From contig CAKQMD010000004.1 of the NCBI GenBank assembly GCA_934254925.1, forward strand, positions 18,664 to 82,663: DNA of 64,000 bases, read 5' to 3'. Position numbers and translations under genes: made by a program. Shown one piece after another: positions 4,671 through 57,372 of this stretch; position 1 is the stretch's first letter; each line of letters opens with the position of its first letter. The notes beneath the pieces were generated by a model. It searched no databases, had not been told where the DNA came from, and saw nothing but the letters and a program-made list of their open reading frames with translations. The stretch is from an uncultured Alphaproteobacteria bacterium (lineage in GTDB: Bacteria > Pseudomonadota > Alphaproteobacteria > RF32 > CAG-239).

Positions 4671-7028
4671 ATGGTTGTTAGAAAAGAAACTTATCCGGTA
4701 TTGCCGTTAAGAGACATTGTCGTTTATCCCAAAATGATCGTTCCTTTGTTTGTGGGGCGCGAAAAGTCCATCACGGCGCTGCAAAAAGTGGTTGACGAAG
4801 ACAAAAACATTGTTTTGCTGACGCAAAAAGATGCAAAGATTGAAGATCCGGGCGCGGATGACGTTTATCACATCGGAACAATCGGCACGGTTTTGCAGCT
4901 GTTGCGCCTTCCTGACGGAACGGTTAAGGTTTTGATCGAGGGGCTGGAGAGAGTTCAGATTGACAAGTTTATTAAAAACGAAGAATACATGGAAGTTAAC
5001 GCGGTTATTTTGCCAGAGGCGGAAGACTATGATCCCGAACTGACGGCTTTGGAAAGGGCGGTGTTGTCGCAGTTTGAGGAATATGTCAAACTTTCAAGAA
5101 AGACGCCGCCGGAAGCGATTATTGCGGTTAATCAGATTGCCGATCCGGGAAAACTGGCCGATACGATCGCCTCTCATCTGAATTTGAAGATTGCAGACAA
5201 ACAGGCTTTGCTGGAGGCTGTCAGCCTGAGGGAGCGTTTTGAAAAGATCCTTGGCTTTATGGAAGCCGAAATCGCTTTGATGGAGGTTGAAAATAAGATT
5301 AAAACCCGCGTTAAAAAGCAAATGGAAAAAAGCCAGAAGGAATATTATCTCAACGAGCAGATGAAGGCAATCCAAAAAGAGCTCGGAGACGGGGAGGAAG
5401 ACAGCGAAATCGCCGAATACACCCGTAAGATCGAAACGACCAAGCTTTCTAAGGAAGCCAGGGAAAAAGCCTGGGGCGAGCTTAAAAAACTTCGCTCTAT
5501 GAGCGCAATGTCTGCCGAGGCCACTGTGGTGCGCAATTATCTGGACTGGCTGTTGGACATCCCCTGGAAAAAACGCTCAAAGGTCAACAAAGACCTGGCC
5601 AAAGCCATGGCGGTTTTGGAAAAAGATCATTATGGTTTGGAAGAAGTCAAAGAACGGATTATCGAATATTTGGCGGTTCAGGCTCGTGCGGACAAGGTTA
5701 AGGGTCCGATTTTGTGTTTGGTCGGTCCTCCGGGTGTGGGTAAAACCTCACTCGGCAAATCCATCGCCCGTGCTACCGGCCGCAGCTTTGTCAGAGCCTC
5801 TCTCGGAGGAATGCGCGATGAGGCGGAAATCCGCGGTCATCGGCGGACTTATATCGGTTCCATGCCGGGAAAAATCATCAAAGGCATGAAAAAGGCGGCA
5901 ACGTCTAATCCTCTGTTTTTGTTGGATGAGATTGACAAATTGGGTAATGATTATCGCGGAGATCCGAGTTCGGCTTTGCTGGAGGTTTTGGATCCGGAGC
6001 AGAACTCTTCGTTTAATGATCATTATTTGGAAGTTGATTATGATTTGTCTGACGTGATGTTCGTGACGACGGCCAATTCTTTGGATATGCCGCGTCCTTT
6101 GTTGGACCGCATGGAAATTATCCGCTTGTCCGGCTATACGGAAGAGGAAAAAATCCAAATCGCCAAACTGCATCTGATTCCCAAGGCTTTTAAAGAAAGT
6201 GCGGTCAAGACTTCGGAGCTGAAAATTTCCGATGACGCGATCAGGGACATCATTCGCTATTATACGCGGGAGGCCGGTGTGCGCAACCTTGAGCGCGAGA
6301 TATCCAAAATTGCGCGGAAGGCGGTTAAGGAAATTTTGCTCGGTAAGGCCAAAAAAGTGACGGTGACGGCCAAAAATCTCGGAAATTATCTCGGCGTGAT
6401 CAAATATCGCTATGGTGAGGCCGAAGAAAGCGACCATATCGGCGTGACGACCGGATTGGCCTGGACGGAAGTCGGCGGTGACATTTTGTTTATCGAAGCC
6501 GTCGATATGCCCGGAAAAGGCAAGGTGACGGAAACCGGAAAACTCGGCGACGTGATGAAAGAATCCATCGAGACCGCTTATTCGGTCGTGCGAGCTAATG
6601 CCCGGAAATTGGGAATTGATCCCGAGGTTTTTGAAAAGACGGATATTCACGTTCATGTGCCGGAAGGCGCGACGCCGAAGGACGGGCCTTCAGCCGGTAT
6701 TGCCATGTATACCACCTTGGTTTCGGTTTTGACTAAAATTCCGGTGCGCAAGGACGTGGCCATGACCGGGGAAGTGACGTTGCAGGGCAGGGTGCTGCCG
6801 ATCGGCGGTTTGAAGGAAAAACTGCTTTCCGCTTTGCGCGGCGGTATTAAGACCGTGATCATTCCCAAGGACAATGAAAAAGATCTGGTCGAATTGCCCA
6901 AAAGTGTGACCAAAGGGCTGAAGATTATTCCGGTTTCGGAAGTCGGAGAAGTCATTAAGATTGCTTTGAGTCGCGAGGTCACTCCTTTGCCGGAAAATGA
7001 GTGCAAATGTGAAATTGTGAAAGAGTGA
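4671..7028 (+). CDS. lon: ATP-dependent Lon protease
   Basis: 785 aa. N-terminal LPLRDIVVYPKMIVPLFVGREKS, Walker A GPPGVGKTS, C-terminal serine protease domain. Confidence 0.95.
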   Translation: MVVRKETYPVLPLRDIVVYPKMIVPLFVGREKSITALQKVVDEDKNIVLLTQKDAKIEDPGADDVYHIGTIGTVLQLLRLPDGTVKVLIEGLERVQIDKFIKNEEYMEVNAVILPEAEDYDPELTALERAVLSQFEEYVKLSRKTPPEAIIAVNQIADPGKLADTIASHLNLKIADKQALLEAVSLRERFEKILGFMEAEIALMEVENKIKTRVKKQMEKSQKEYYLNEQMKAIQKELGDGEEDSEIAEYTRKIETTKLSKEAREKAWGELKKLRSMSAMSAEATVVRNYLDWLLDIPWKKRSKVNKDLAKAMAVLEKDHYGLEEVKERIIEYLAVQARADKVKGPILCLVGPPGVGKTSLGKSIARATGRSFVRASLGGMRDEAEIRGHRRTYIGSMPGKIIKGMKKAATSNPLFLLDEIDKLGNDYRGDPSSALLEVLDPEQNSSFNDHYLEVDYDLSDVMFVTTANSLDMPRPLLDRMEIIRLSGYTEEEKIQIAKLHLIPKAFKESAVKTSELKISDDAIRDIIRYYTREAGVRNLEREISKIARKAVKEILLGKAKKVTVTAKNLGNYLGVIKYRYGEAEESDHIGVTTGLAWTEVGGDILFIEAVDMPGKGKVTETGKLGDVMKESIETAYSVVRANARKLGIDPEVFEKTDIHVHVPEGATPKDGPSAGIAMYTTLVSVLTKIPVRKDVAMTGEVTLQGRVLPIGGLKEKLLSALRGGIKTVIIPKDNEKDLVELPKSVTKGLKIIPVSEVGEVIKIALSREVTPLPENECKCEIVKE

Positions 7029-13300: not shown

Positions 13301-13376
13301 TGTGGAAGTAGAGATTTGAACTCCCGGGAAGGGAGTTCGACTACCAGCGAGAGGCGGGCGGGAGCACGCCGGTCAG
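13301..13376. repeat. 77-bp palindrome-containing repeat element, copy A, immediately 3' of tRNA-Val
   Basis: About 85% identical to 57194..57270. Contains a perfect 8-bp-stem hairpin, GAACTCCC-loop-GGGAGTTC. Minus-strand reading GGGAGTTCAAATCTCT resembles the T-arm of the adjacent tRNA-Val (GGGAGTTCGAATCTCT). Confidence 0.7.
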
Positions 13377-13765
13377 GACTGCTGCGGACAAGATTGAACT
13401 TGCTTTAGGACATAATGATCGGACAAAGCGCCGGTAATCGGTTGTTTCTCCATGTCCAGTCTTCTGATTTGCTTGTCTTCCAAGCGATACCAGGTGATTT
13501 CGTCCTGAGGGTCATCCGGCGTCAGTTCCAGCAATTGGCCTTCAATTCGGTATTCGCCTGATTCATCAAACCTGCCGTCGGCCTGGTCAATGTAAACGAT
13601 GGTTTGGTGGTAGGCATGATTTGTTTGGAAGCGGATGGTGGTCTCAATTCCCGGTCCGTCGGCGGCCGGGAGAATGCCTCGGTAGGTTCCGCAAAGGTCA
13701 TTATGATGGTGAAAGCAAGCCGTGAGTGCTAAAAAAGCCAATAAAGCCAAAGGTTTTGCCGACAT
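13373..13765 (-). CDS. NlpE N-terminal-domain lipoprotein
   Basis: Signal peptide with lipobox LTAC; GTYRGILPAADGPGIETTIRF matches the NlpE N-domain pattern GxYxGxLPxADxxGIxT. Confidence 0.65.
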   Translation of the reverse strand: MSAKPLALLAFLALTACFHHHNDLCGTYRGILPAADGPGIETTIRFQTNHAYHQTIVYIDQADGRFDESGEYRIEGQLLELTPDDPQDEITWYRLEDKQIRRLDMEKQPITGALSDHYVLKQVQSCPQQS

Positions 13766-35709: not shown

Positions 35710-37314
35710 TTGATGAAGCTCTTACGCCTCTTATTGCCGCTTATATGCCTGATGTCGATGACGCCGTCTTCGGCACAGGCTTTGTTTTTGTCCGACGAGG
35801 GCGACAAGGTCAGCGTAGAACTATTGACCTGTTATGACGAGATCAACCCGCGGCAGAAGCTGGAGGTTTTGATCAAGTTTCGTCTGCATGACGGCTGGCA
35901 TATCTATGCGCAAAATCCCGGAGATCTCGGTCTGCCGACGGAAGTCGAATGGCAGCTGCCCGCCGGAGCACAGGCTGCGGAAGCGCAATGGAGCCCGGAA
36001 GAAGAATTTGTCAACGAAGGAATTGTGCAGTACGGCTACGGAGACGTCGCCTATTATAAGACGCAGATTACTTTTCCGGAAACCGTTCAAGGACTTCAAA
36101 AATTTAAGGTCAAGATTTCCTGGCTAGGTTGCAGGGATGAGTGCATTCCCGGAAAAACGGAGTTTTATTTTGAGTTGCCGGTGTCTGAGCAGATGCAAAA
36201 GCACAATGCGACGTGGAATCGGGAATTTAAATTGGCCAAGCTTCGTTTTGACGCCGACGGCGGTAAAAGTTTTCTCCTTATTTTGTTGGCGGCTTTTGCC
36301 GGAGGGGTTATTTTGAACTTTATGCCTTGTATTTTTCCGATTTTGACGATCAAGGCCATTTCCATGGTGCAGGGGCGTTACAATCGGCGCAACAAGAGAA
36401 TCGAGGCATTGTTGTATTTGGCAGGCGTGGTGCTTTCTTTTATTGTCGTGGCTACGGTTTTAGTGTTGCTGAGGGCTTCCGGTGAACAAATCGGCTGGGG
36501 GTTCCAACTGCAGTCTCCGGCTTTCGTGGCGGTGATGATCGCCATCTTTGCCGTTATTTTTCTGATGTTGCTTGACTTGATTAAAGTGACTAATCCTTTT
36601 GCCAACAGACTCGGACGGATGTCTTTGCAAAAAGCCAGGTTGAACGCGTTTGTCACCGGTTTTTTCGCCGTATTGATAGCCAGTCCCTGCACGGCACCGT
36701 TTATGGGAATCGCTATCGGTTATACGCTTACTCAGCCTTTGTATGTCTATTATCCGGTTTTTCTTGCGCTCAGTCTTGGTTATGCCCTGCCCTTTACAAT
36801 GATCGGGTTTTATCCCAAAGTTGTTTATCGCATGCTGCCTCGTCCGGGAAAATGGATGGAGGTTTTGAAAAAGATCTTTGCCGTGCCGATCTTTTTTACT
36901 TGCGTTTGGCTGATTTGGGTCCTATATAACCAGACGGACAGCCGCTCCCGCGTGATTGACACGATGGCTTGGGAAAATTATAACGCCTATCGTATCGAAA
37001 ATCTCAAGGAGCAAGGGGAAGCCGTGTTTATCGACTTTACGGCCAAGTGGTGCATCACCTGCCTGATGAACGAAAAAGTGGCGTTGAGTTCTCATCAGTT
37101 CGGCAATTTGGTCAAAGAATACAAAATCCACCTGTTTAAGGCAGATTGGACGAACGAAGACAGCGCCATCTCCGAGGCTTTGGAAGAATATGGCCGGAAT
37201 TCCATTCCTCTGTATGTTTTTTGTCCCGGAAAAATGCAGGCATGTCAAATTTTGCCGCAAATTTTGACGCCGGGAATTTTGGAAGATTATATTAAAGGAA
37301 AAACAAATGATTAA
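35710..37314 (+). CDS. dsbD: Thiol:disulfide interchange protein DsbD
   Basis: N-terminal DsbD-alpha domain, central TM domain with FMPCIFPIL, C-terminal thioredoxin fold with WCITC. Confidence 0.85.
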   Translation: MMKLLRLLLPLICLMSMTPSSAQALFLSDEGDKVSVELLTCYDEINPRQKLEVLIKFRLHDGWHIYAQNPGDLGLPTEVEWQLPAGAQAAEAQWSPEEEFVNEGIVQYGYGDVAYYKTQITFPETVQGLQKFKVKISWLGCRDECIPGKTEFYFELPVSEQMQKHNATWNREFKLAKLRFDADGGKSFLLILLAAFAGGVILNFMPCIFPILTIKAISMVQGRYNRRNKRIEALLYLAGVVLSFIVVATVLVLLRASGEQIGWGFQLQSPAFVAVMIAIFAVIFLMLLDLIKVTNPFANRLGRMSLQKARLNAFVTGFFAVLIASPCTAPFMGIAIGYTLTQPLYVYYPVFLALSLGYALPFTMIGFYPKVVYRMLPRPGKWMEVLKKIFAVPIFFTCVWLIWVLYNQTDSRSRVIDTMAWENYNAYRIENLKEQGEAVFIDFTAKWCITCLMNEKVALSSHQFGNLVKEYKIHLFKADWTNEDSAISEALEEYGRNSIPLYVFCPGKMQACQILPQILTPGILEDYIKGKTND

Positions 37315-37836: not shown

Positions 37837-37912
37837 GGGTGCGTAGCTCAGTTGGTAGAGCAACTGACTCTTAATCAGTGGGTCTGGGGTTCGAACCCCC
37901 ACGCGCCTACCA
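37837..37912 (+). tRNA. tRNA-Lys (anticodon CTT)
   Basis: Cloverleaf by eye: anticodon stem ACTGA/TCAGT, loop CTCTTAA, T-loop TTCGAAC, CCA encoded. Confidence 0.8.
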
Positions 37913-37920
37913 ATAAGAAA

Positions 37921-37956
37921 GACCGGGTGGAAGTTTTGTCCCCGGTCTTTTTTTTA
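37921..37956 (+). terminator. Rho-independent terminator after tRNA-Lys
   Basis: GACCGGG-loop-CCCGGTC followed by T9. Confidence 0.65.
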
Positions 37957-38133
37957 TTCGGGGGTTCTCACCCTGCGGGTTCGTCTGGCTCGTAAGTTTT
38001 TGCGTTGCAAAAAATAACTCGCTGCGGTCACTCGTCTTGTAACGCTTGTTTGGCACGCTTTGCGGCGGCACAAGCTAACAAGACTTCGCCTGTCGTCAGA
38101 AAAGCTTTCACCGGAAGCTTTTCTTTCCTCCAG

Positions 38134-38178
38134 CCCCACGCGCCTACCAATAAGAAAGACCGGGTGGAAGTTTTGTCC
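38134..38178 (+). repeat. 45-bp direct duplicate of the tRNA-Lys 3' end plus the first half of its terminator (copy 2; copy 1 is 37897..37941)
   Basis: CCCCACGCGCCTACCAATAAGAAAGACCGGGTGGAAGTTTTGTCC occurs twice, 192 bp apart. Copy 2 lacks the terminator's 3' half. Confidence 0.8.
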
Positions 38179-38308
38179 AAACGGAAGGGTAAGGAAATTA
38201 TTTCTTAAATTTCTTGATTATCAATTGTATGTTGACTGAACAATCGGCCTTTGATACCCTACTACCGTCATTTTGTCTAAATAATGAGCAACTTACGGAG
38301 AACGGAAC

Positions 38309-45095: not shown

Positions 45096-45183
45096 GGAGA
45101 GTTGGCAGAGTGGTAATGCAGCGGATTGCTAATCCGTCATCGTGAATAACGATGCACAGGTTCGAGTCCTGTACTCTCCGCCA
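45096..45183 (+). tRNA. tRNA-Ser (anticodon GCT)
   Basis: Class II tRNA with a long variable arm, acceptor GGAGAGT/ACTCTCC, anticodon loop TTGCTAA, CCA encoded. Confidence 0.8.
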
Positions 45184-45197
45184 GTTATGGTTGCAAG

Positions 45198-45222
45198 AGC
45201 CCCTGAACGGGGCTTTTTTTTA
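45198..45222 (+). terminator. Rho-independent terminator after tRNA-Ser(GCT)
   Basis: AGCCCC-TGAAC-GGGGCT followed by T8. Confidence 0.65.
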
Positions 45223-45317
45223 TTTCCGCACAATATTTCTTTCTTGACAATAAAAATAAATTGCATAGATTGATCCGGCTTATGATTTTTATGTTTTATT
45301 TTTTAATATTATTATAT

Positions 45318-57061: not shown

Positions 57062-57151
57062 GGAGAGGTGGCAGAGCGGTTTAATGCAGCGGTCTTGAAA
57101 ACCGTCGAGGGAGCGATCCCTCCGGGAGTTCGAATCTCCCCCTCTCCGCCA
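57062..57151 (+). tRNA. tRNA-Ser (anticodon TGA)
   Basis: Class II tRNA, acceptor GGAGAGG/CCTCTCC, anticodon loop CTTGAAA, long variable arm, T-loop TTCGAAT, CCA encoded. Confidence 0.8.
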
Positions 57152-57159
57152 TAACAAAA

Positions 57160-57191
57160 ACGGCCTGCCTTGTGCGGGCTGTTTTTGTTAT
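57160..57191 (+). terminator. Rho-independent terminator after tRNA-Ser(TGA)
   Basis: GCCTGC-CTTGT-GCGGGC plus TGTTTTTGTTAT. Confidence 0.55.
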
Positions 57192-57193
57192 GA

Positions 57194-57270
57194 TGTGGAA
57201 GGGAGGAATTTGAACTCCCCAAAAGGGAGTTCGACTACCAGTGAGAGGCGGACGTGAGGACGCCGGTCAG
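57194..57270. repeat. 77-bp palindrome-containing repeat element, copy B, 3' of tRNA-Ser(TGA)
   Basis: Aligns with 13301..13376 over the TGTGGAAG...ACGCCGGTCAG core; identical 8-bp hairpin stem with a different loop (CAAAA vs GGGAA). Confidence 0.7.
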
Positions 57271-57313
57271 CAACGCTGACGAACGCCTGTGCAACTCGAG
57301 CAACGCGAAGAGT

Positions 57314-57372
57314 AATCTCCCCCTCTCCGCCATAACAAAAACGGCCTGCCTTGTGCGGGCTGTTTTTGTTAT
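57314..57372 (+). repeat. 59-bp direct duplicate of the tRNA-Ser(TGA) 3' end plus terminator (copy 2; copy 1 is 57133..57191)
   Basis: AATCTCCCCCTCTCCGCCATAACAAAAACGGCCTGCCTTGTGCGGGCTGTTTTTGTTAT is present twice, 181 bp apart, bracketing repeat element B. Confidence 0.85.

Follow-up and report, generated by a model that had tools for sequence, protein, structure and literature searches.

A previously undescribed family of hairpin-rich elements in partial duplicates of tRNA genes of uncultured gut Alphaproteobacteria

Transfer RNA (tRNA) genes are the classic landing pads of large integrase-bearing islands. In a stretch of 64,000 nucleotides from an uncultured alphaproteobacterium (hereafter the window; contig CAKQMD010000004.1), the gene for tRNA-Lys(CTT) is followed by an interior of 192 bp and then by a second copy of its own 3′ end, an arrangement that an earlier note on this DNA had read as a tRNA end displaced by site-specific integration. 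Most of this interior is a 150-bp sequence, here named E1, which is one copy of a previously undescribed family in uncultured gut Alphaproteobacteria that lies inside partial duplicates of many different tRNA genes. A full-text literature search found no description of such elements, and E1 was compared with the closest systems that have been described.

The cis-mobilizable elements (CIMEs) of streptococcal integrative and conjugative elements (ICEs), together with islands at tRNA sites, resemble the E1 unit in several respects. They are bounded by direct repeats of the tRNA 3′ end, leave an intact tRNA, accrete in tandem and carry no recombinase, and a proximal unit with its own terminator, as in three of the loci described here, is found among them as well. 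In contrast to these systems, E1 is 10–100 times smaller and gene-less, occurs in both orientations and in different tRNA loops, at times without flanking repeats, and has covarying hairpins. No parent ICE or island with ends matching E1 was found.

Small hairpin-rich non-autonomous repeats are already known as a general kind, among them MITEs (miniature inverted-repeat transposable elements), REP/BIME, ERIC, Correia and RUP sequences and the Rickettsia palindromic elements. Like E1, these are non-coding, multi-copy and about 80–150 bp long, vary in presence and absence among close relatives, and are presumed to be mobilised in trans. Unlike them, E1 has terminal inverted repeats of 4 nt and no fixed target-site duplication, is associated nearly exclusively with tRNA genes, and is embedded in a partial duplicate of its target with a palindromic linker. 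The palindrome-associated transposable elements (PATEs) derived from IS200/IS605 are close in geometry only, the geometry being that of IS608 and ISDra2: they have no real terminal inverted repeats and carry subterminal hairpins some 11–13 nt from the ends, which the E1 hairpins P2 and P4 (see below) would match. A one-sided short motif (GGG on the complementary strand of E1), head-to-tail tandems and an insertion without target duplication, as at the tRNA-Arg gene described below, would also agree with PATEs, whereas the tRNA-derived direct repeats of most E1 copies and the linker are foreign to IS200/IS605 insertion. Neither TnpA (Y1 HUH transposase) nor TnpB was seen among the open reading frames (ORFs) inspected.

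Finally, tandem inversion duplications that form by snap-back at quasi-palindromes and are remodelled by deletion have been described in Salmonella. The proximal junction of the partial tRNA copy resembles them: a short inverted segment is linked to sense sequence by a turn of 2–5 nt, centred on a natural quasi-palindrome, namely the T-arm, or the anticodon arm at tRNA-Pro; such duplications are, however, a general route of duplication and not an element, and would account for the E1 linker only. What appears to be new is that the elements keep almost exclusively to tRNA genes, that they are inserted at loop positions of partly duplicated targets and have a palindromic linker cognate to the tRNA, and that two unrelated bodies share this one architecture.

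The tRNA-Lys locus and the E1 body

The intact tRNA-Lys(CTT) gene was located at 37837..37912 on the + strand by ARAGORN and matched the Rfam tRNA family with 69.2 bits. Its last 16 nt and 29 nt of trailer make up a 45-bp sequence, CCCCACGCGCCTACCAATAAGAAAGACCGGGTGGAAGTTTTGTCC, which occurs at 37897..37941 and again at 38134..38178 (both +, 100% identical, 237 bp from start to start), exactly as first reported; in 64 kb, chance alone would yield about 1.7e-18 such exact 45-mer pairs. Copy 1 contains the 3′ strands of the T-stem and the acceptor stem, CCA, the trailer and the 5′ half of the tRNA terminator. The complete intrinsic terminator spans 37915..37957 (+), an inverted repeat with the stem GACCGGG/CCCGGTC followed by T8, and with the A-rich run upstream of it could act in both directions. 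It was also correct that copy 2, a tRNA 3′ fragment with half a terminator, lacks the second half: copy 1 continues with CCGGTC and T8, and copy 2 with AAACGG and unrelated sequence. At its other side copy 2 abuts the 3′ end of E1, giving the junction CCAG/CCCC (here and below the slash marks the end of E1).

The interior between the repeats (192 bp, 37942-38133) holds a short linker and the E1 body. The linker, also termed P1 (37960..37983, +), consists of a degenerate T-arm-like hairpin, GGGGGTTCTCACCC, then TGC, then GGGTTCG in sense orientation, the latter corresponding to the T-stem 5′ strand plus the TTCG of the T-loop. The 150-bp body (37984..38133, +) is supported by its match to the covariance model R1 and by covariation, both described below. 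It begins with TCTGGCTCGTAAG and continues with the hairpin P2 (37996-38014), the junction TAACTCGCTGCGGTCAC between P2 and P3 (38015-38031), the long hairpin P3 (38032-38088), the segment CCTGTCGTC, the terminator-like hairpin P4 (38099-38123) and finally TTTCCTCCAG, all on the + strand.

Seven Lys-type inserts were aligned, which revealed conserved blocks between hairpins whose sequences differ and still pair, and R1, built from this alignment, retrieved all of the copies. R1 matched the window at 37952-38160 with 195.3 bits (E=5e-51) over model positions 1-213, that is, at full length; other full-length copies were found in L009, L011, L013, L016, L017, L019 (twice) and L029. When metagenome contigs were scanned with a 19-nt conserved block as a pattern together with R1, about 55 further copies scoring 60–128 bits were recovered. 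E1 is small, non-coding and multi-copy: over 60 copies were counted in related contigs totalling about 1.2 Mb. In all copies compared, the constant unit of about 150 bp runs from TCTGGCTCRTAAG through P2, (C)TAACTCGCTGCGGTCAC, P3, TTCGCCTGTCGT and P4 to TTTCCTCCAG, P4 having the A-run, stem and T-run of a terminator. The ends, TCTGGCTCRTAAG on one side and CCTCCAG on the other, are constant in every context, P2 and P4 stand 12 and 10 nt from them, and the inverted symmetry of the termini amounts to 4 nt (CTGG...CCAG).

The hairpins were further assessed in 35 distinct copies. Standard pairs filled 87.1% of the pair cells, against 35–52% when the 3′ partners were slid by 1–3 columns, and compensatory change on both sides was seen at 42 of 48 pairs, distributed over the three hairpins. 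The covariation score was 0.418 (at most 0.135 in the slid controls), and none of 500 shuffles reached the observed values. As judged from this comparison of copies, the E1 hairpins are shown to be maintained by compensatory changes, and the pairing data fit the folding of either RNA or single-stranded DNA. Across the E1 copies the + strand has 80 G-U pairs and 55 A-C mismatches, a modest bias that does not decide which strand is folded.

That the interior had been described as free of ORFs needs a qualification. A mechanical list does contain ORFs of 50–67 aa over it, with GTG or TTG starts and no conservation; the homologous copies, however, differ by indels of 1–4 nt and by variation that preserves base pairs, which argues against coding. 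A search of Rfam 15, covering the whole window at gathering thresholds and both repeat-bearing loci (Lys and Ser) at permissive E-values, passed tRNA only, other matches lying far below threshold. The idea of a transfer-messenger RNA (tmRNA) or permuted tRNA-like gene was rejected, as ARAGORN found none and the acceptor-like pairing does not covary. A guide RNA made of a scaffold and a tRNA-matching 3′ guide was likewise considered, and was kept as a remote possibility only, because P4 resembles a terminator and precedes the tRNA fragment, and because a consistent motif next to it was not found.

The locus itself was recovered repeatedly. Using the exact sequence of the 150-aa deaminase encoded upstream, we found four independent contigs (L001–L004; two metagenome-assembled genomes (MAGs) from NCBI and two ENA metagenome assemblies) in which the 549-bp spacer between the deaminase and autotransporter genes is identical to that of the window. 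The genes around the locus encode this deaminase, DsbD, the autotransporter and MotAB. Just to the right of copy 2 is a sigma-70-like promoter match on the - strand, directed leftward (38197-38224, TTGATA-16-AATAAT, 10/12); an RNA initiated there would start with sequence complementary to the tRNA-Lys 3′ end and trailer, cross E1 in antisense and reach the two-way tRNA terminator. Near its 3′ end the DsbD-like gene contains a tandem 12-nt unit (CAAATTTTGCCG / CAAATTTTGACG, 37246-37269), which is probably trivial.

Target sites and a second family

In related gut metagenome contigs E1 was found at genes for tRNA-Lys, Thr, Val, Gly, His, Phe, Pro, Ala and Arg. In almost all cases its right end abuts a tRNA-derived CC(C), which on the complementary strand places E1 3′ of GGG. 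The right flank reads CCCCACGCGCCTACCA at Lys (junction CCAG/CCCCACGCG), CCCGCTCCA at Gly(GCC) (CAG/CCCGCTCCA), CCCGTCCCCGAGCACCA at Phe (CCAG/CCCGTCC) and CCTCTCAACTCCCACCA at Val(TAC) (CCAG/CCTCTC). For the inverted copies the junctions are CCAG/CCCAAAGCAAG in the anticodon loop of tRNA-Pro and GAG/CCCAACTGAGC in the D-loop of tRNA-Ala, and behind the Arg terminator the junction is CCAG/CCCTCCGCAAGGGAGGG, with no duplication evident in the roughly 110 nt of left flank shown. The exception is Thr(CGT), where the flank, CGCATTCGTAATGCG and onward, comes from the anticodon stem.

The orientation of E1 differs among the sites: it is sense at the T-loop (Lys, Phe, Val, His), and antisense at the Pro anticodon loop, at the Ala D-loop and behind the Arg terminator. 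To the left of a sense E1 the linker consists of the antisense T-arm of the cognate tRNA, a turn of 2–5 nt, and the sense T-stem 5′ strand with TTCG. The antisense T-arm reads ACGGGATCGAACC at Phe, AGGTTCGAACTCCCGA at Val, GGGCAAAGGGATT at Gly and GGGCTCGAACC at His. Cognate antisense T-arms are present in the linkers of these four and, in the second family described below, of Ser and Ala. Given this linker on the left and the 3′ part of the tRNA on the right, E1 takes the place of the T-loop in a partial second copy of the tRNA, and this partial copy opens with a palindromic turn.

At tRNA-Pro(TGG), E1 lies inverted in the anticodon loop of the partial second copy, and the proximal junction carries the palindrome CCAAAGCAAG|CTTGCTTTGG. 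Within near-identical flanks at this gene, 153-bp bodies stand head to tail in numbers of one (L171, L144, L150), two (L089, L158, L164) or three (L112). At tRNA-Ala(CGC), an inverted E1 is found upstream, followed by a repeat of the first 19 nt of the tRNA that ends in the D-loop (L143, L126). At tRNA-Arg(ACG), E1 follows directly on the terminator stem, and no flanking repeat is evident in the sequence shown (L131, L139, L145, L166). The length of the flanking repeat accordingly ranges from none, at the Arg terminator, through 9 nt of tRNA at Gly to about 130 nt at Thr (L025), with no target duplication of fixed length. Whole E1 units occur in tandem in L019, L130, L123 and L115. E1 copies in two contigs have genes for tyrosine integrases (PF00589) as neighbours, and these adjoin truncated tRNA-Arg(ACG) and tRNA-Thr-like fragments (L131 3341-4531 and L151 7919-9049, both on the - strand). 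The integrase genes were considered as a possible part of the element and rejected, as they look like parts of ordinary islands inserted in neighbouring tRNA genes.

A companion repeat at tRNA-Ser(TGA) had also been noted, and it is real: 59 bp, at 57133-57191 and 57314-57372, around an insert of 122 bp. This insert, named E2 (57192..57313, +), consists of a linker (57192-57234), with an antisense-like T-arm and sense GGGAGTTCGA, and a body (57235-57313). A truncated E2 was detected behind tRNA-Val(TAC) and its terminator (13302..13384, +), where the linker (13302-13340) contains an antisense T-arm that, compared by eye, agrees with tRNA-Val in 15 of 16 positions, and sense GGGAGTTCGA, and is followed by the first 44 nt of the body without a distal tRNA fragment; blastn aligned this truncated copy with the Ser insert over 63 bp at 89% identity. 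Elsewhere E2 was found at tRNA-Ser(CGA) in L135 and L094, and at tRNA-Ala(CGC) in L143 as 2.5 tandem units. The order is tRNA, terminator, antisense cognate T-arm, sense T-stem with TTCGA, the body (about 80 nt), then tRNA sequence that starts in the 3′ part of the T-loop and ends with CCA, and lastly a terminator. E2 is a second family, with the same architecture as E1 and an unrelated body.

As had been claimed, the Lys and Ser interiors are unrelated and gave no alignment to each other. The view that they stem from independent events is right insofar as the two loci hold different families, and the alternative offered with it, a family of small tRNA-targeting elements, is supported and considerably extended, with E1 at Lys, E2 at Ser and Val, and at least 10 tRNA species occupied across the relatives. 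Within the window, three of the four tRNA genes (Val, Lys and Ser-TGA) have an element, and tRNA-Ser(GCT) has none behind its terminator. The T-stem 3′ strand of tRNA-Ser(GCT) (locus at 45096-45240) reads CCTGT and is without the CCC run of most E1 junctions. In L143 (4975-5445 and flanks) a single tRNA-Ala(CGC) gene hosts both families, with the inverted E1 and the repeat of the first 19 nt on its 5′ side and the 2.5 tandem E2 units on its 3′ side.

Orthologous Lys loci in relatives

Species-representative genomes were scanned with the deaminase, which identified about 35 MAGs of uncultured gut Alphaproteobacteria at 57–81% protein identity, 22 of them with tRNA-Lys(CTT) directly after the deaminase gene. 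Six loci are without an insert (L012, L014, L015, L021, L028, L031). In five (L009, L011, L013, L017, L029), a homologous insert of about 190 nt is followed by a second tRNA 3′ end at a spacing of 237–259 bp; L019 has two complete tandem units, and L016 one unit carrying an extra insertion of about 110 nt. Nothing but the 5′ portion of the insert, with other sequence after it, was found in L007, L008, L018, L024, L027 and L033, and the arrays of L009, L013 and L017 close with a truncated additional copy. The sequence is therefore not conserved identically across distant relatives; the copies are diverged, missing, truncated or in tandem. The proposed comparison with an empty site could be made between L028 (empty) and L029 (filled), which share their flanks and differ cleanly by one unit together with the duplicated tRNA end, the terminator and 12 nt.

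Downstream of tRNA-Lys the genes are syntenic chromosomal (housekeeping) genes, whether the insert is present or absent. No integrase or cargo lies between or beside the repeats in the window or in any of about 20 orthologous loci, no integrase-like ORF was found downstream in the 14 orthologous loci inspected, and tblastn of two integrases of the clade against the window gave no significant match. An integrase or island behind the tRNA was specifically considered for the loci that hold the 5′ part of E1 only, and was rejected, the downstream genes there being syntenic chromosomal ones.

Other small modules accompany E1 at these loci. The insertion of about 110 nt reads CAATTCCGACTAAGCAATTGTATCG...GCAACATTAGTTGCTTTTTG and has a terminator-like hairpin of its own; it lies inside E1 after CTAACTC in L016 (4730-4840) and L018 (4680-4790), and after a truncated second E1 in L013 (about 4990-5100), so that E1 elements are themselves targets of other small modules. 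Another repeated intergenic module (...CCCGCGATGCTATGGCGGGG..GTGCTTTGAAG..) is placed behind truncated E1 copies in L017 (~4940-5040), L018 (~4870-4980) and L027 (~4750-4850). The intergenic regions of this clade seem to be rich in small repeats.

Candidate explanations and their meaning

The reading that we favour, with confidence evenly balanced, takes the insert for one copy of E1 and regards E1 as a miniature mobile element of about 150 bp, non-coding and rich in hairpins, which here occupies the T-loop of a second, partial tRNA-Lys directly behind the intact gene and its terminator. Such an element is best read as non-autonomous and specialised on tRNA genes, and the 45-bp direct repeat is best explained as the overlap of the intact tRNA end and trailer with the partial tRNA-Lys copy downstream. 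With its constant ends, one-sided junction motif, either orientation and bare tandem copies, E1 is shown to be a discrete unit, as far as can be read from the contigs. The body occurs in loops or at the feet of hairpins, once without duplication, and so behaves like an insertion; the whole unit, which comprises the tRNA 3′ end, the terminator, the linker and the body, resembles a Campbell-type insert in its behaviour, with dissimilar terminators and tandem arrays. A transposase may have worked on the body or an integrase on the unit, or perhaps both.

Under the favoured reading, the E1 body would be moved in trans by an enzyme, either a transposase or a recombinase, which recognises a short motif within or beside hairpin-forming DNA. 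A hit in a single-copy tRNA gene would be lethal, and the only insertions observed would thus be those with a partial duplication that preserves an intact gene. The antisense/sense T-arm palindrome at the proximal junction may be the footprint of a snap-back event, of the inverted-duplication type, at the quasi-palindrome of the T-arm. Whole units, once made, could expand, vanish or be exchanged through recombination within the tRNA-derived repeat.

Several points weigh against this reading. Neither a transposase nor an autonomous partner sharing its ends turned up in the roughly 1.2 Mb of related DNA covered, the terminal inverted repeats comprise 4 nt only, and target duplication of fixed length is absent. 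On its own, a plain transposon model leaves the linker and the direct repeats of tRNA origin unexplained, and the coupling of insertion to duplication is an inference. The Thr(CGT) junction, CCGG/CGCATTCG, violates the CC(C) rule. The loci L009, L111 and L135, in which proximal and distal terminators are unrelated and the tRNA-derived segment of 16–27 nt is identical, fit a whole unit entering through recombination within that segment better than transposition of the body alone. Deletion between the direct repeats can also produce all of the presence/absence patterns, so that no insertion event is directly demonstrated, and the strong structural covariation would equally suit a functional RNA.

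A different mobile entity is assumed if the whole 237-bp unit is a mini integrative element, that is, a gene-less attP which a tyrosine integrase encoded elsewhere inserts in Campbell fashion at the tRNA 3′ end, regenerating the tRNA and displacing its old end. We hold this to be rather unlikely. A unit of about 240 bp has the size of a classical attP such as that of lambda, the direct repeat runs from the T-arm through the tRNA end with an intact tRNA kept, and in L009, L111 and L135 it is as if the incoming unit had brought its own tRNA end and terminator. The whole-unit tandem arrays of L019, L130, L123 and L143, the filled and empty sites of L029 and L028, and the presence of tyrosine integrases adjoining tRNA genes in these organisms (L131, L151) are also in keeping with it. 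However, no integrase is linked to any copy, and the same body occurs in both orientations and at T-, anticodon- and D-loop positions, as well as in bare 153-bp head-to-tail repeats without tRNA segments and in the Arg terminator copy without a flanking repeat. Moreover, compensatory variation in hairpins is not expected of double-stranded arm-type binding sites, and the identity of the terminators in most genomes would require each element to match the trailer of its host.

The favoured reading could also be carried further, with E1 and E2 as a new kind of mobile element that homes to tRNA T-, anticodon- and D-loops by recognition of hairpin-forming DNA or RNA, not of a long sequence, and whose insertion is coupled to a snap-back partial duplication regenerating the intact tRNA gene. 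This version we consider unlikely. It would amount to a 'safe-landing' strategy of a gene-less element of 150 bp or even 80 bp, for which its own structured transcript or a single-stranded form might serve as the recognition module. A retro-origin, in which complementary DNA of a tRNA was joined to E1, was rejected, as trailer and terminator are part of the repeats, which in Thr extend through the anticodon loop.

Alternatively, E1 and E2 may be functional non-coding RNAs made from the tRNA trailer or from a promoter of their own, for example small RNAs derived from the 3′ trailer or RNAs that pair with the tRNA T-arm through the antisense linker. Gene conversion would then keep the tRNA-derived repeats identical, and duplication and loss would generate the variation among loci; this view does not exclude mobility. 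Covarying stems together with conserved junctions are the classical mark of a structured RNA, P4 with its A-run, stem and T-run resembles an intrinsic terminator, the site right behind tRNA genes would permit co-transcription, the 3′ half of the cognate tRNA finds its complement in the linker, and G-U pairs exceed A-C mismatches on the + strand. This last bias of 80 to 55 is weak, however, and the orientation relative to the tRNA obeys the CCC/GGG junction rule and not the direction of transcription. No conserved promoter lies upstream, a complete terminator precedes E1 in the window, and the sole promoter-like match is on the opposite strand and outside the element. Given, in addition, that copies are truncated at many loci, that their number varies from 0 to 3 among close relatives and that no Rfam family corresponds to them, we judge a functional RNA to be quite unlikely, though for its strong covariation a serious rival.

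The scar proposed at the outset, for which a prophage, ICE or genomic island would have integrated here and later shrunk by deletion to 192 bp, did not stand and is very unlikely. Duplication of a tRNA 3′ end is indeed the classical signature of an att site, but the interior is a full-length, structured family member with defined ends that recurs at 10 or more different tRNAs, and independent deletions would not converge upon one structured body of 150 bp. The orthologous loci, with their syntenic genes, hold no island or integrase, and orientation and crossover position relative to the tRNA are not fixed. In searches of phage and plasmid databases, the plasmid database gave no match and the phage database a single one, MT837050.1 (L171, 7864 bp, human faeces), labelled 'UNVERIFIED: Bacteriophage sp.'. 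Compared with L112 and L144, the region around the match is the tRNA-Pro(TGG) locus of these same bacteria with one E1 copy and no phage feature nearby, and MT837050.1 is probably a misclassified bacterial contig. Scans of viral contigs returned no E1 motif, and two matches of the E2 motif within high-GC coding sequence were rejected as chance. Lastly, an assembly artefact, such as a collapsed or mis-joined repeat, has nothing in its favour beyond the general risk of assembling MAGs and was excluded as exceedingly improbable, since the spacer is identical in four contigs assembled independently from different samples with different assemblers, and homologous structures occur in dozens of other contigs.

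For annotation, short tRNA-end repeats of this type should not be taken for island boundaries. In these bacteria, gene-less elements of 80–150 bp occupy the landing pads that tRNA genes provide, always with a working tRNA remaining. If they are mobile, they would represent an undescribed way to colonise essential single-copy genes safely, and would point to a recombinase or transposase, specific for hairpins or loops, in a little-known group of human-gut bacteria. If they are functional RNAs, they would form a new and widespread class of tRNA-linked RNA.

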